A DNA stretch of 5,682 nt from a virus (taxonomy: Duplodnaviria; Heunggongvirae; Uroviricota; Caudoviricetes), in IMG/VR virus record IMGVR_UViG_2663762945_000009; one strand, written 5' to 3'. Numbering within the stretch: position 1 is the first letter of the stretch; every line of letters starts with the position of its first letter. Made by a program: the position numbers and the translations under genes. A model generated the notes under the pieces. That model was not told the origin of the DNA, did not search any database, and worked only from the letters and a program-made list of their open reading frames with translations. Below are positions 1 to 5,612 of this stretch, piece by piece.

Positions 1-60
1 GCTAAAAGAACCGGAAAAAACAAGGTGATAATTCATTCAAAATAAACACCTTTTTAAAAT

Positions 61-107
61 ACAGCCCCAATAAACTGCAGAATATTATCCCATATAATAT
101 CCTGCAG
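61..107 (-). terminator. Putative rho-independent terminator downstream of the tfa remnant
   Basis: At 75-107, ctgcagaatattatcccatataatatcctgcag gives a ~14-bp stem (one G-U position) with a 5-nt loop. On the - strand it is followed by TTTATT. Stem is AT-rich, so strength is uncertain. Confidence 0.35.
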
Positions 108-118
108 TTCGTAATGCA

Positions 119-214
119 CTATTCGATAATGGGTACTGTTGGCCATTCAATATCCGGTGCAGTTGTTGTATTAACACGGTTCAGCAACACCCGATACTTC
201 TTCCAGGCTTCCAG
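119..214 (-). pseudogene. tfa: Tail fibre assembly protein, C-terminal 31-codon remnant (lambda Tfa-like)
   Basis: The - strand frame encodes [31 protein letters not shown] then a stop at 119-121. This matches the C-terminal motif of lambda Tfa as I recall it, and the same EAW..Y..L..RVDT..P.WP motif closes the intact Tfa at 1515-2042; the convergent copy at 2071-2604 ends differently (KLTEWMLYAQKVESTDTSGLPVTFPEQPE). No N-terminal part is present. Confidence 0.6.
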
Positions 215-444
215 CACCAGCACGACAAGATGCCGCATACAGTGACCCAGTCAGTCCAGTTTCCAGACAACCAGTGCGTCACCTTTTTGAAGGCGCTTTA
301 AAGCACGTTTAATCCAGGTCGGCCTGTCCTTATTCCGCTTAATTTATCTTCAAATATTTGTTCACATCCTGCACAAACAAGAGCGTTTCGTTGCAGGTCT
401 GTATTCTGGTCATTTGTTGATACCCTTACATAGCCAATCAGCAC
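215..444 (-). pseudogene. pin: Serine DNA invertase (Pin/Gin/Hin/Cin family), N-terminal fragment with frameshift and in-frame TGA
   Basis: From GTG at 442-444 the - strand encodes MLIGYVRVSTNDQNTDLQRNALVCAGCEQIFEDKLSGIRTGRPGL (catalytic-serine motif YVRVSTNDQ). A -1 shift near 308-312 then gives KRALKRLQKGDALVVWKLD, an in-frame TGA sits at 251-253, and [12 protein letters not shown] follows. A GGGAGA Shine-Dalgarno lies 6 nt upstream of the GTG. The C-terminal helix-turn-helix domain is absent. Confidence 0.7.
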
Positions 445-498
445 GCTGAATCTCCCGTCCAAAAGCACAAATCATGCCATGCAGGCCAGAAACCGCCA

Positions 499-524
499 TT
501 ATCTAAAACCTCGGTTTACAGGAA
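499..524. other. gix/pix/hix-type inversion crossover site (26 bp, imperfect dyad)
   Basis: TTATCTAAAACCTCGGTTTACAGGAA has the same half-site layout as Gin/Hin sites (TTATC..AAACC / GGTTT..GGAA). It sits between the invertase start and the 5' end of the tail-fibre variable ORF, as gixR does in Mu. Confidence 0.6.
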
Positions 525-548
525 ACGGTAAACAGGGCCAGGAACGCC

Positions 549-1511
549 GTGCAAAAGAATGGCGATACCTTGTCCGGTGGGCTTACTTTTGAAAACGACT
601 CAATCCTTGCCTGGATTAGAAATACTGACTGGGCAAAGATTGGTTTTAAAAATAATGCCGACAGCGACACTGATTCATACATGTGGTTTGAAACAGGCGA
701 CAACGGCAATGAATATTTCAAATGGAGAAGCCGCCAGAGCACCACAACAAAAGACCTGATGACTCTTAAATGGGATGCTTTGTCTGTCCTTGTTAAAGCC
801 CTTTTCAGCAGTGAAGTAAAAATATCGACAGTCAATGCACTGAGGATATTTAATTCATCTTTTGGTGCTATTTTTCGTCGTTCTGAAGAATGCCTGCATA
901 TCATCCCTACACGAGAGAATGAGGGAGAAAATGGTGATATAGGGCCACTACGCCCCTTTACGCTTAATCTCAGAACTGGTCGGATAAGCATGGGGCATGG
1001 TCTTGATGTTACAGGGGATATATTTGCAAACCGTTTTGCAATTAACAGTAGTACCGGCATGTGGATTCATATGCGTGACCAGAATGTTATTTTGGGACGC
1101 AATGCGGTATCCACCGATGGTGCGCAGGCATTACTTCGTCAGGACCACGCTGATCGCAAATTTATGATTGGTGGACTGGGGAATAAGCAATTTGGCATCT
1201 ACATGATTAATAACTCAAGGACAGCCAATGGCACCGATGGTCAGGCGTACATGGACAACAATGGCAACTGGCTTTGCGGTGCGCAAGTTATTCCCGGCAA
1301 TTATGGTAATTTTGACTCACGTTATGTGAGAGATGTCCGACTTGGTACACGTGTTGTTCAGACTATGCAAAAAGGCGTGATGTATGAGAAATCAGGTCAT
1401 GCAATTACGGGGCTTGGCATTATCGGTGCAGTTGATGGCGATGATCCGGCAGTATTCAGACCAATACAAAAATACATCAATGGCACATGGTATAACGTCG
1501 TACAGGTGTAA
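549..1511 (+). CDS. stf: Side tail fibre protein, variable C-terminal (receptor-binding) portion
   Basis: 320-aa ORF with phage tail-fibre motifs (WFETGDNGNEYF; C-terminal RPIQKYINGTWYNV). The frame is open from 507, directly after the gix site. An AGGA lies 5 nt before GTG 549. Stop codon is 3 nt before the tfa start. No constant N-terminal fibre shaft is present upstream. Confidence 0.75.
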   Translation: MQKNGDTLSGGLTFENDSILAWIRNTDWAKIGFKNNADSDTDSYMWFETGDNGNEYFKWRSRQSTTTKDLMTLKWDALSVLVKALFSSEVKISTVNALRIFNSSFGAIFRRSEECLHIIPTRENEGENGDIGPLRPFTLNLRTGRISMGHGLDVTGDIFANRFAINSSTGMWIHMRDQNVILGRNAVSTDGAQALLRQDHADRKFMIGGLGNKQFGIYMINNSRTANGTDGQAYMDNNGNWLCGAQVIPGNYGNFDSRYVRDVRLGTRVVQTMQKGVMYEKSGHAITGLGIIGAVDGDDPAVFRPIQKYINGTWYNVVQV

Positions 1512-2606: not shown

Positions 2607-2840
2607 TTAAATACTCCCCGCGTTATACCACGTCCCATTAATGCAATACTGAATTGGCCTTGCCTGAGTTGTATCAATTAATTCATCACGGTTTCCGTTA
2701 ACTGAACCCGTAACGACATAACCTGACCTGTCAGACCAGCCGGGGCCTTTCCATGTCTGAACAGATGACAGACCGCCAAGGCGAATACCTGTAATAAACC
2801 TTGAGTTACATTCTGCCTGCGTATATGCACCAACATCTCG
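2607..2840 (-). pseudogene. stf: Side tail fibre protein, second variable tip, truncated to its C-terminal ~75 codons
   Basis: The - strand encodes ...GAYTQAECNSRFITGIRLGGLSSVQTWKGPGWSDRSGYVVTGSVNGNRDELIDTTQARPIQYCINGTWYNAGSI, alignable to the last ~75 aa of the 549-1511 ORF (shared RLG...RPIQ.Y/CINGTWYN). The 5' portion and its expected gix site are replaced by lambda-like sequence. Confidence 0.6.
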
Positions 2841-2888
2841 CCTTTGAAAAAATCCAGATATCCGCCGGAATGGTGCAGAAATGTCGGT

Positions 2889-3164
2889 ATACGGATAACG
2901 GCTACTCCGTGTTTGAGCAGTCACTGCTGCGGTATATCGCTGCCGGGCTGGGTGTCTCGTATGAGCAGCTTTCCCGGAATTACGCCCAGATGAGCTACTC
3001 CACGGCACGGGCCAGTGCGAACGAGTCGTGGGCGTACTTTATGGGGCGGCGAAAATTCGTCGCATCCCGTCAGGCGAGCCAGATGTTTCTGTGCTGGCTG
3101 GAAGAGGCCATCGTTCGCCGCGTGGTGACGTTACCTTCAAAAGCGCGCTTCAGTTTTCAGGAAG
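2889..3164 (+). pseudogene. B: Portal protein B, internal fragment (lambda gpB-like)
   Basis: Encodes TDNGYSVFEQSLLRYIAAGLGVSYEQLSRNYAQMSYSTARASANESWAYFMGRRKFVASRQASQMFLCWLEEAIVRRVVTLPSKARFSFQE, which I recognise as an internal stretch of lambda B. It ends abruptly at 3164. Confidence 0.8.
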
Positions 3165-3688
3165 GCGGCACTGGCAAGCAGCTGACCTGCACTGCAGTTC
3201 ATGTCGTTGGCCAGCGCCCATACCGGTTTTATGTCACGCACACGGGCGATGATGTCAGCGCAGTCAAATGCCCCCGCCACCATCCCGCCGGGCGTGTCCA
3301 TATCGAGCAGAATGCCGTCCACCATCGGATCGCTGGCAGCCTGTTGCAGACGGGCGATAATGCCGTTGTAACCGGTCATCCCCGAGTACGGCTGCAGCGC
3401 CCGCGTCCGGCTGACCAGCGTGCCGGACACCGGCAGCACGGCGATGCCGTTCATGACCTGATAACTGCGGGCCTGTCGTGGTCCGTCATCATCACCGGAT
3501 AATGCCAGCGTCGCGGGTGCCTCCTGGGCAGTCAGGCTGTCGCCGGACACCGCATCCGTCAGGCGGCTGATCCCAAGCTGGCCTGCAAGCGCACAAAAGA
3601 AAACCCGCGCATAGGCGGGTTCAAGCATCAGCGGCTCATTAAAAGCCATGCTGGCAATATGCGGGAGATTACGCAGCTCTGCTGTCAC
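3165..3688 (-). pseudogene. C: Head protease/scaffold protein C (S49 ClpP-like), N-terminal ~173 codons
   Basis: From GTG at 3686-3688 the - strand encodes VTAELRNLPHIASMAFNEPLMLEPAYARVFF...MNCSAGQLLASAA, the lambda gpC N-terminus as I recall it. It overlaps the B stop by ~20 nt as in lambda. Reading continues into unrelated sequence after 3165. Confidence 0.8.
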
Positions 3689-3958
3689 TCTTCTCCTCCT
3701 CTGTTGATTGTCGCAGCCCGGATTCAAATGCTGCAGCCGCCCAGGCGGGCGGTTTAAGACCGGCTGCGCGGCGCTCCATCGTTTCACGGACCTGCTGGGC
3801 AAAAATTTCCTGATAGTCGTCACCGCGTTTCGCGCACTCTTTCTCGTAGGTGCTCAGTCCGGCTTCTATCAGCATCACCGCTTCCTGAACTTCTTTCAGA
3901 CCATCGATGGCCATACGACCGGAGCCTATCCAGTCGCAGTTCCCCCAGGCACTGCGGG
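3669..3958 (-). pseudogene. B: Portal protein B, C-terminal ~95 codons
   Basis: The - strand encodes ARSAWGNCDWIGSGRMAIDGLKEVQEAVMLIEAGLSTYEKECAKRGDDYQEIFAQQVRETMERRAAGLKPPAWAAAAFESGLRQSTEEEKSDSRAA then a stop. This is the direct continuation of the + strand B fragment that ends at 3164, but on the opposite strand. Confidence 0.8.
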
Positions 3959-4154
3959 CTCCCGGCGTCTGGTCACGCAGACCGCCCGGACAGGCTCCAT
4001 CGGCGTCATGATGGCTCACAGTAATTACGGTGCTGCGCTGGAGAAACAGGGTGTGGAAATCACTCTGATTTACAGCGGCAGCCATAAGGTGGATGGCAAC
4101 CCCTACAGCCATCTTCCGGATGACGTCCGGGAGACACTGCAGTCCCGGATGGAC
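3959..4154 (+). pseudogene. C: Protein C, internal fragment continuing from the - strand C fragment
   Basis: Encodes SRRLVTQTARTGSIGVMMAHSNYGAALEKQGVEITLIYSGSHKVDGNPYSHLPDDVRETLQSRMDAT, the residues that follow ...QLLASAA in lambda C. Strand is opposite to the C N-terminal fragment. Confidence 0.75.
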
Positions 4155-4470
4155 GCAACCAGATAAGGGTGTTGCGCTGCTTATGCTCTATGAAGTAGGC
4201 ATAAACACCCAGCAGCATTTTGGAATAACCGACACGGGCAGACTTCACCACATTCACCTCACGGATGTAGTCGCTGCCCATCGCATTCATGATGGCCCGC
4301 TGAAAGGGCAGTGTTTCCCAGCGCCCTTCCTGGTATGCGGATTCTTTCGGGAGATAGTAATTGGCATCCGCCCATTCAACGGCGGTCTGTGGCTCCGGCC
4401 TGAACAGTGAGCGAAGCCCGGCGCGGACAAAATGCCGCAGCCTGTTAACCTGACTGTTCGATATATTCAC
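4155..4470 (-). pseudogene. A: Terminase large subunit A, N-terminal ~105 codons only
   Basis: From GTG at 4468-4470 the - strand encodes MNISNSQVNRLRHFVRAGLRSLFRPEPQTAVEWADANYYLPKESAYQEGRWETLPFQRAIMNAMGSDYIREVNVVKSARVGYSKMLLGVYAYFIEHKQRNTLIWL. It overlaps the Nu1 stop as in lambda. Homology ends at ~4155; this N-terminal piece is the Nu1-interacting region, and the ATPase and nuclease domains are missing. Confidence 0.85.
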
Positions 4471-4990
4471 TCAGCAACCCCGGTATCAGTTCATCCAGCG
4501 CGGCTGCTTTGTTCATGGCTTTGATGATATCCCGTTTCAGGAAATCAACATGTCGGTTTTCCAGTTCCGGAAAACGCCGCTGCACCGACAGGGGGATCCC
4601 GTCGAGAATACTGGCAATTTCACCTGCGATCCGCGACAGCACGAAAGTACAGAATGCGGTTTCCACCACTTCAGCTGAGTCTCTGGCATTCTTCAGTTCC
4701 TGTGCGTCGGCCTGCGCACGCGTAAGTCGATGGCGTTCGTACTCAATAGTCCCTGGCTGGAGATCTGCCTCGCTGGCCTGGCGCAGTTCTTCAACCTCCC
4801 GGCGCAGCTTTTCGTTCTCAATTTCAGCATCCCTTTCGGCATACCATTTTATAACGGCGGCAGAGTCATAAAGCACCTCATTACCCTTGCCACCGCCTCG
4901 CAGAACGGGCATTCCCTGTTCCTGCCAGTTCTGAATGGTACGGATACTCGCACCGAAAATGTCAGCCAGCTGCTTTTTGTTGACTTCCAT
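4445..4990 (-). CDS. Nu1: Terminase small subunit Nu1, full length
   Basis: 181-aa ORF MEVNKKQLADIFGASIRTIQNWQEQGMPVLRGGGKGNEVLYD...SEYIEQSG with intact start and stop. It matches lambda Nu1 as I recall it. It lies immediately downstream (on the - strand) of cosB. Confidence 0.9.
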   Translation of the reverse strand: MEVNKKQLADIFGASIRTIQNWQEQGMPVLRGGGKGNEVLYDSAAVIKWYAERDAEIENEKLRREVEELRQASEADLQPGTIEYERHRLTRAQADAQELKNARDSAEVVETAFCTFVLSRIAGEIASILDGIPLSVQRRFPELENRHVDFLKRDIIKAMNKAAALDELIPGLLSEYIEQSG

Positions 4991-5167
4991 TGTTCATTCC
5001 ACGGCCAAAAACAGAGAAAGGAAACGACAAAGGCCCAAAAGTTCGTTTTCAGCACCTGTCGTTTCCTTTCTTTTCAGGGGGTATTTTAAATAAAAACATT
5101 AAGTTACGACGAAGAAGAACGGAAACGCCTTAAACCGGAAAATTTTCATAAATAGCGAAAACCCGCG
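4991..5167 (-). promoter_or_regulatory. cosB-like terminase-binding region (R-site repeats)
   Basis: Three R-element-like repeats of the cgtttcc(t/g)ttc(t) type at ~5012-5033, ~5054-5071 and ~5110-5126, between cosN and the Nu1 start. This is the layout of lambda cosB. Confidence 0.6.
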
Positions 5168-5179
5168 AGGTCGCCGCCC
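5168..5179. other. cosN cohesive-end sequence (12 nt)
   Basis: aggtcgccgccc is the reverse complement of the lambda 12-nt cohesive end GGGCGGCGACCT. Sequence beyond 5180 resembles the lambda right end (cosQ side), so the two genome ends are joined here as in a prophage or concatemer. Confidence 0.7.
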
Positions 5180-5378: not shown

Positions 5379-5612
5379 ATGTCAACGAAGAACAGAACCC
5401 GCAGAACAACAACCCGCAACATCCGCTTTCCTAACCAAATGATTGAACAAATTAACATCGCTCTTGATCAAAAAGGGTCCGGGAATTTCTCAGCCTGGGT
5501 CATTGAAGCCTGCCGCCGGAGACTGTGCTCAGAAAAAAGAGTTTCTCCTGAAGCAAACAAAGAAAAGAGTGACATTACTGAATTGCTCAGAAAACAGATC
5601 AGACCAGATTGA
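5379..5612 (+). CDS. Hypothetical small basic protein (77 aa), possible ribbon-helix-helix DNA-binding fold
   Basis: ORF MSTKNRTRRTTTRNIRFPNQMIEQINIALDQKGSGNFSAWVIEACRRRL... has a basic N-terminus, then a short beta-like segment (NIRFP) and two helix-like segments. Only a weak GGGA Shine-Dalgarno ~7 nt upstream. It lies in sequence resembling the lambda right-end region; whether it is expressed is unknown. Confidence 0.35.
   Translation: MSTKNRTRRTTTRNIRFPNQMIEQINIALDQKGSGNFSAWVIEACRRRLCSEKRVSPEANKEKSDITELLRKQIRPD

Follow-up and report, generated by a model that had tools for sequence, protein, structure and literature searches.

Close to one end of a 5,682-nt stretch of DNA from a Caudoviricetes virus (IMG/VR record IMGVR_UViG_2663762945_000009; the whole stretch is called the window here), the start of a DNA invertase gene seems to run without a break into the end of a tail fiber assembly (tfa) gene. 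A first-pass annotation, made from the letters alone, read positions 119 to 444 as an in-frame pin::tfa pseudogene born of illegitimate recombination and then hit by two further lesions. The questions raised by this locus are whether such a fusion truly exists, from which parents and by which route it came, and whether anything in or around it still acts.

The locus is a true scar of recombination and has ceased to function as a gene. On the minus strand, positions 444 to 215 are codons 1-77 of a Gin-type serine DNA invertase gene, with a GTG start at 444-442 and the Ser9 nucleophile region kept, and positions 214 to 119 are the last 31 codons and the stop of a lambda-type tfa, joined in frame. 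As a feature, the tfa remnant spans 119-216, i.e., codons 164-194 and the TAG stop at 121-119 plus, in this allele, 2 nt of codon 163. The minus-strand junction falls within 213-217, where it was placed by codon comparison with the pinE, gin, and tfa parents, a five-locus alignment, and BLAST end-points. Two lesions interrupt the invertase part. An in-frame TGA at 251-253 occupies codon 65, which specifies Arg in intact relatives (CGC in Gin, CGA in PinE), and a run of three T's at 308-310, four in relatives, marks a 1-nt deletion that shifts the frame after codon 45 and brings in a TAA at 300-298. The frame opened by the GTG reads VLIGYVRVSTNDQNTDLQRNALVCAGCEQIFEDKLSGIRTGRPGLNVL up to a stop, the open reading frame (ORF) at 298-468 terminating as NVL and a stop codon, and the neighboring minus-strand frame carries the rest of the fusion through to 121-119. 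The 39-aa ORF at 119-238 has no exact match on record. Since chance alone joins two genes in frame one time in three, the in-frame state by itself carries no weight.

Both halves were recognized when the frameshift-corrected conceptual product was compared with Pfam, the two scores exceeding the curated cut-offs: Resolvase at residues 3-85 (E = 9.8e-21; profile 2-93 of 145) and Caudo_TAP (PF02413) at residues 78-105 (E = 3.4e-11; profile 103-130 of 131). The fusion and its coordinates thus stand, and the residues after LVVLV, which had been taken for the C terminus of a lambda-type Tfa, do align to Tfa and not to an invertase. At the nucleotide level, window positions 120-216 are 87.6% identical to the 3' end of lambda tfa (orf-194), and the remnant is 100% identical over 67 nt to many alleles of tfaQ and tfaR from the Qin and Rac prophages. 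The stub has the GYVRVST motif with Ser9, in a Resolvase domain that is incomplete and broken by the TGA and the frameshift. Everything from residue 78 onward is absent and replaced by Tfa, including the E-helix and the C-terminal helix-turn-helix DNA-binding domain, compared with 184 to 193 aa in intact relatives. Deprived of its E-helix, its DNA-binding domain, and the end of its catalytic domain, the fusion product cannot act as a recombinase. Codons 1-163 of tfa are gone; what remains, 31 of 194 codons, is a conserved C-terminal block (including the EWP motif) that covers 28 of the 131 profile positions of a domain of about 130 residues, and it cannot act as a chaperone. Automatic annotation (PGAP) already knows both halves as partial genes: the tfa part in strain C2 is a "tail fiber assembly protein, missing N-terminus", and in relatives the invertase frame, read through to the TGA, is the 64-aa "recombinase family protein" WP_001378636.1. 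No paper describing this invertase::tfa joint was found in the literature.

The stop, the frameshift, or the join might be sequencing or assembly errors laid over an intact invertase, and the frameshift does sit in a homopolymer run, a typical error site. We regard this as practically negligible. The junction, with the TGA, is found in 538 of 5426 complete and independently assembled Escherichia coli genomes, about a tenth (141-nt query spanning the joint). The frameshift allele recurs at 100% identity in two unrelated short-read assemblies, over 1384 nt in Logan SRR32130100 and 696 nt in the ENA gut-metagenome contig ERZ943760, so sequencing error was rejected as its cause. Correcting both lesions, moreover, yields no intact invertase; the 77-codon fragment is still fused to Tfa.

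The lesions are not of one age. The single T missing from TTTT (TTT at 308-310 in the window) is present in C2 and 13C1065T, as an alignment with both shows; these two near-identical loci read through to the TGA and thereby contain the 64-aa ORF. The junction and the TGA also occur together in a diverged copy, about 93.6 to 95% identical over the junction query, in a lambdoid prophage beside trpA/ompW. The TGA must be old because it is common to the att-lambda and the trpA/ompW prophage lineages. The scar is therefore old and common; it is found at two integration sites and in no fewer than two prophage lineages. Multi-hit inactivation, as first proposed, is correct with the qualification that the hits are of very different ages, the fusion and the TGA being old and widespread and the frameshift lineage specific. 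In the phage collection, none of the 20 matches listed contains the fusion junction, all of them starting at or beyond window position 255; a further 106 records matched beside these. As a separate observation, an ST131 genome and strain Ec-U5 hold trpA/ompW copies (L014 5970-6296 and L015 5970-6296) with an extra TGG→TGA change in the stub. Their prophage differs in the variable cassette and the downstream genes, with a SAM-dependent methyltransferase gene in place of the cyclase gene.

Of the name pin::tfa, the serine invertase stands but the Pin type does not. Codons 1-64 show about 94.5% nucleotide identity to Mu-like gin, with three amino-acid differences from Mu-like Gin, compared with some 73 to 76% to pinE, whose homology begins at window 215/216. 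The match to gin extends past the gene: window positions 255-778 are 94.5% identical to the end of gin and the adjoining G-type segment of a Mu-like prophage with an intact 193-aa invertase. An identity as pinE, pinQ, or pinR was consequently rejected, PinE likeness being confined to codons 65-77, which match PinE (MRHLVVLV) and not Gin (MKHLISLV). By sequence comparison the stub itself thus reads as a mosaic whose Gin-like part gives way to a PinE-like one at codon 65. An intact invertase of just this Gin/PinE makeup was not found. A PinE-like patch is also seen in an invertase fragment beside ypjA in K-12 MG1655 (L012 2450-2617; about 84% identity to window 215-284). The ypjA-side fragments of K-12 and strain C4 were considered as a parent and discarded as an unrelated pseudogene.

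The two parental arrangements can be read in extant genomes. The window comes from a decayed lambdoid prophage at att-lambda, of which it forms the bio-proximal end; relatives show the order bioA–ybhB–diguanylate cyclase–tfa remnant–invertase remnant–gix–Sv'–tfa–tfa–stf–lom–J. Window positions 1-45 are the 3' end of the gene for a 443-aa MASE4-GGDEF diguanylate cyclase, which is probably dgcX of O104:H4 and other strains, judging by its position at att-lambda next to lambdoid prophage DNA. The unfused parent, whose search in related strains had been advised, exists: in strains T2 and Z226-5 a complete 585-bp, 194-codon tfa lies equally far from the cyclase gene and follows stf, lom, and J, and the Z226-5 locus is 100% identical to window 1-216. 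The end of the cyclase gene together with the 3' end of tfa occurs in 767 genomes, and those beyond the fusion carriers include unfused prophages. The donor type of module is found in a Mu-like prophage of Z0117EC0036, in which an intact 193-aa invertase gene adjoins com and a gene at the mom position. This prophage has the same arrangement of variable tail-fiber ends and the same 528- and 534-bp tfa genes, with 94.5% identity to window 255-778 and 90.5% to 1293-2839. Compared with an unfused prophage (L004 5217-7254, 2038 bp), the C2 locus has a block of 3757 bp (L001 6217-9973) in its place, between flanks that are 97.9% and 93.7% identical.

Replacement of a module is the most likely origin of the scar, i.e., recombination of a Mu/P1-type G segment into a resident stf-tfa region. 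The starting point would be a lambdoid prophage at att-lambda with the order J–lom–stf–tfa–dgc–attR–ybhB–bioA, and the DNA gained would be a Mu/P1-type module, gixL–Sv–U–U'–Sv'–gixR, with the start of its invertase gene. In what was presumably a single double-crossover event, the left crossover would lie in stf, and the right one would be the illegitimate join of invertase nt 231/232 (codon 77/78) to tfa codon 163/164. The cassette and the 5' end of gin would thus have taken the place of the 3' part of stf and of tfa codons 1-163, leaving the first 77 Gin-type invertase codons in frame with the last 31 codons of the resident tfa. Codon 65 would later have changed from CGA to TGA, and one nucleotide would then have been lost from the T4 run in the lineage of the window. 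No intermediate of the replacement, in one event or in several, was seen. The account as a whole, with a Mu/P1-type module entering the att-lambda prophage, a dead invertase::tfa scar left behind, and a fossil of it in the window, is one that we hold with good confidence.

Deletion between neighboring genes is less likely. A complete invertase gene followed by a complete, co-oriented tfa could have lost everything between invertase codon 77 and tfa codon 164, a model that accommodates both the co-oriented, contiguous remnants and the junction microhomology of no more than 2 bp, as expected of an illegitimate deletion. Its parent should have had the cassette, an intact invertase gene, and a full tfa in series, a configuration that is absent from all 5426 genomes, every match of at least 95% identity to window 200-530 being fused already. 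The closest intact invertase gene lies in a Mu-like prophage beside com/mom, not beside tfa; comparison with the unfused prophage gives a clean block replacement between homologous flanks; and the parent that deletion demands would have had a superfluous third tfa behind U and U'. We therefore think a simple internal deletion improbable and retain the module replacement.

At the right-hand joint, read along the minus strand, the pinE-type parent has GTC GTG CTG GTG GAG GAG and the tfa parent ACC TCG TTG CTG GAA GCC. The majority fused allele, shared by C2, MSI001, and both ompW-lineage loci, reads GTC GTG CTG GTG GTG GAA GCC; the allele of the window, GTC GTG CTG GTG CTG GAA GCC. Identity to tfa ends at 213 (216 in the window allele) and identity to the invertase at 214/215. 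The parents overlap by 0 nt in the majority allele and by 2 nt in the window allele. With 0 to 2 nt of parental overlap the join is illegitimate, in agreement with the original proposal of an illegitimate join within a CTGGTG/CTGGAA stretch at about 212-217. GTG is the majority junction allele and is also that of the divergent ompW lineage; the window has CTG, with G at position 214.

In the majority allele the Chi octamer GCTGGTGG lies on the minus strand of the C2 locus (L001 6214-6221; window equivalent, 214-221), and its 3' end is the junction. The same octamer is found at the same codons of intact pinE (nt 225-232; L007 4000-4007); the window allele has lost it through C→G at 214. When RecBCD resects a DNA end, the Chi strand retains what lies 5' of Chi. 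This suggests, in a speculation made after the fact, that the incoming donor DNA entered the joint with an end resected by RecBCD and terminating at Chi. Such an end fits because the DNA 5' of Chi here is the retained invertase 5' part plus the cassette.

Patchy divergence also leads up to the joint. Five substitutions (positions 3, 32, 36, 135, and 214) separate window 1-216 from C2, the window being identical there to the unfused Z226-5 allele, and the 1-nt deletion is the only difference from C2 over 217-560. This pattern suggests a recombination end-point that would lie at or very near the joint. A second type of tfa 3' stub, found in 86 genomes (e.g., strain M3, L003 5119-5240; window equivalent, 119-213), ends at the identical tfa nucleotide and is joined via 19 unmatched bp to a bet/exo region, within a prophage integrated at dsdC/torI. 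That a single tfa nucleotide should have served for two independent joints is an unexplained coincidence. Lambda bet/exo was tried as the second parent of the M3-type stub; the match to lambda is limited to the last 11 nt of bet (TGGCAGCATGA) and its continuation into exo, and the 19 bp stay unmatched.

Upstream of the stub, the window preserves part of the imported module. A perfect 26-bp gix-type crossover site (TTATCTAAAACCTCGGTTTACAGGAA) at 499-524 on the plus strand, 55 bp upstream of the stub start codon, is the sole match in the window, and none was found in 200 shuffles. On the plus strand it is followed by the silent variable tail-fiber cassette Sv' (510-1511), which has a Gp34_trimer domain, is labeled by PGAP in C2 as "phage tail protein, missing N-terminus", and is 91 to 94% identical to the G segments of SfMu and D108 and the C segments of P1 and P7, and by a tail fiber assembly gene of 175 aa (1515-2042; Caudo_TAP E = 1e-37, full profile). 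A second, convergent assembly gene of 177 aa lies on the minus strand (2071-2604; Caudo_TAP E = 2.2e-36, full profile), as does the 3' end of the variable part of stf in expressed orientation (2607-2837). There homology to C2 and other strains stops, the rest of stf and the second gix site having been deleted. In C2, stf continues for 2838 bp, with the second gix site inside it. The two inverted crossover sites that flank Sv–U–U'–Sv' in C2 are thus reduced to one in the window. No gix-like sequence was seen at the other window joints (2837, ~3160, ~3960, and ~4155). With a dead invertase, an orphan gix site, and a truncated fiber gene, nothing in the window can flip or function, and the locus there is a fossil.

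In relatives the segment has flipped. C2 has two inverted gix sites (L001 6500-6525 and 9553-9578) 3.0 kb apart, the second within stf, and the two regions are identical over 22 bp of their inner arms. Genomes were scored with the unflipped junction and with a flipped query, i.e., the C2 sequence as expected after inversion at the gix centers: 229 hold the former and 135 the latter at full length, with 100% identity among the matches listed. Between C2 and MSI001 the only break in collinearity is a precise inversion of 3087 bp whose ends lie at the gix repeats, with 99.74% identity in the inverted segment, and both carry the same fusion and TGA stub. Because the fusion kills the invertase and would have arisen once, at least one inversion should postdate it. 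We infer that inversion in these relatives is catalyzed in trans by other resident Gin/Pin invertases. A near-full-length pinE-like gene is present in at least 2386 of the 5426 genomes.

Both orientations could instead have been brought about by homologous replacement of the whole locus or by RecA recombination between the short inverted repeats, a reading that we consider rather unlikely, if worth keeping in view. E. coli prophage regions do recombine often, cf. the patchy divergence around the junction, and the 22 identical bp in the inner gix arms allow no finer placement of the crossover. However, the usual minimum length for RecA exchange is 22 bp or more. Both break-points fall at canonical gix sites in an otherwise collinear, nearly identical segment, and no lambdoid version with a live invertase was found that could have supplied the other orientation. 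Inversion in trans by a paralogue, moreover, is documented: PinQ of the Qin prophage has been shown experimentally to invert the P segment of e14 (PMC12529663).

Inversion in trans leads to the question of why the dead stub persists. In the Hin and Gin systems, some 100 bp separate one crossover site from the Fis-dependent enhancer, which is contained in the invertase gene (PMC3798978), and its position inside the gene is also attributed, by a citing paper, to Kahmann et al. 1985. By analogy with Hin/Gin, a presumed Fis-dependent recombinational enhancer may be placed in the retained 5' part of the stub, at about 342-412, where the window, C2, and MSI001 do not differ and the ompW lineage shows 2 substitutions. 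The stub still carries cis-acting DNA, namely the gix site and, putatively, this enhancer region. We propose, tentatively and without quite leaning toward it, that the stub persists for these cis elements of a nonautonomous invertible segment. If so, lambdoid prophages at two integration sites would possess a Mu-type switchable side tail fiber with no invertase of their own, one that is flipped only by Gin or Pin of other resident prophages and is in the flipped state in about 37% of carriers.

Selection might otherwise have kept the stub because it encodes a small protein with a function, be it the 64-aa N-terminal peptide or a chimera made by read-through. The 64-aa ORF is indeed conserved and is annotated as a protein in many genomes, a conservation that cis-acting DNA or recent common descent would explain equally well. 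Its product is without all elements for dimerization and DNA binding, and the ORF has been hit again independently, by TGG→TGA in the ompW lineage and by the frameshift in the window. A small protein is accordingly very improbable.

How does this locus compare with known systems? It is of the same working type as the Mu G/P1 C inversion system and descends from it, although neither a live invertase nor a complete Tfa domain is found at the scar. Mu (with D108 and SfMu) and its G segment and Gin, and P1/P7 with the C segment and Cin, show the same order of site, variable end, two convergent tfa genes, variable end, site, and invertase, whose gene starts about 67 bp from the site, together with a 26-bp gix-type site, 91 to 94% nucleotide identity in the cassette, and about 94.5% in the 5' part of the invertase gene. 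Unlike in Mu and P1, the module here lies in a lambdoid prophage downstream of J–lom–stf, its invertase gene is cut at codon 77 and fused to tfa, and, in the window, the second crossover site is gone. Likeness to the P segment and PinE of e14 lies elsewhere. That is also a tail-fiber segment of a cryptic prophage, found in both orientations among sequenced E. coli and flippable by an invertase encoded elsewhere (PMC12529663), and codons 65-77 of the stub are PinE-like, including the position of the Chi octamer. In contrast, e14 has a working pinE, while the adjacent invertase is dead here and any flipping must come entirely in trans; crossover sites and cassette also differ.

Exchange of tail-fiber and chaperone modules among unrelated phage families, by recombination within or beside these genes, has long been known. 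Haggard-Ljungquist and coworkers reportedly described tail-fiber mosaicism between lambdoid, Mu, P1, and P2 phages in 1992, and Sandmeier is said to have treated tail-fiber gene mosaicism between phage families in 1994. The present case departs from the usual mosaicism in that the two parental states are still legible, as is the exact right-hand joint, and in that this joint cuts the invertase gene and is not intergenic.

For the window itself, all this is of little importance: it holds a correctly read pseudogene in a heavily decayed prophage. Beyond it, the locus is an example of an exchange between Mu/P1-type and lambda-type tail-fiber modules whose two parents and precise joint are legible, and the scar, present in about 10% of complete E. 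coli genomes, is a convenient marker. Further work might pay off only for the segment of the relatives that apparently has no invertase and still flips, a natural test of an invertible tail-fiber segment run wholly by invertases encoded elsewhere. The question of trans inversion has gained relevance since PinQ-driven inversion of e14 has been linked to phage defense.

The remainder of the window bears on its decay. Positions 2838-5179 are scrambled lambda head and packaging genes: 2889-3173 correspond to lambda 3872-4156 (portal), 3160-3963 to lambda 4946-4143 (end of portal and start of C, inverted), 3950-4160 to lambda 4933-5143, and 4155-5179 to lambda 1026-1 (start of A, intact Nu1, and cos). 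The inverted 804-bp piece is bounded by imperfect inverted repeats of about 14 bp that are unlike gix. This arrangement was found in no complete E. coli genome, and none covers at least 80% of the window. Farther on, an intact 77-aa ORF of the YlcI/YnfO family (DUF3950) occupies 5379-5612, as it does downstream of Nu1-like genes in relatives. Other states of decay of the same prophage were also observed. In Z0117EC0098 the cassette is flipped and joined to the region of a DUF1398 gene, and in strain 1409 about 300 bp of the flipped variable end are left before the gene for the terminase small subunit.
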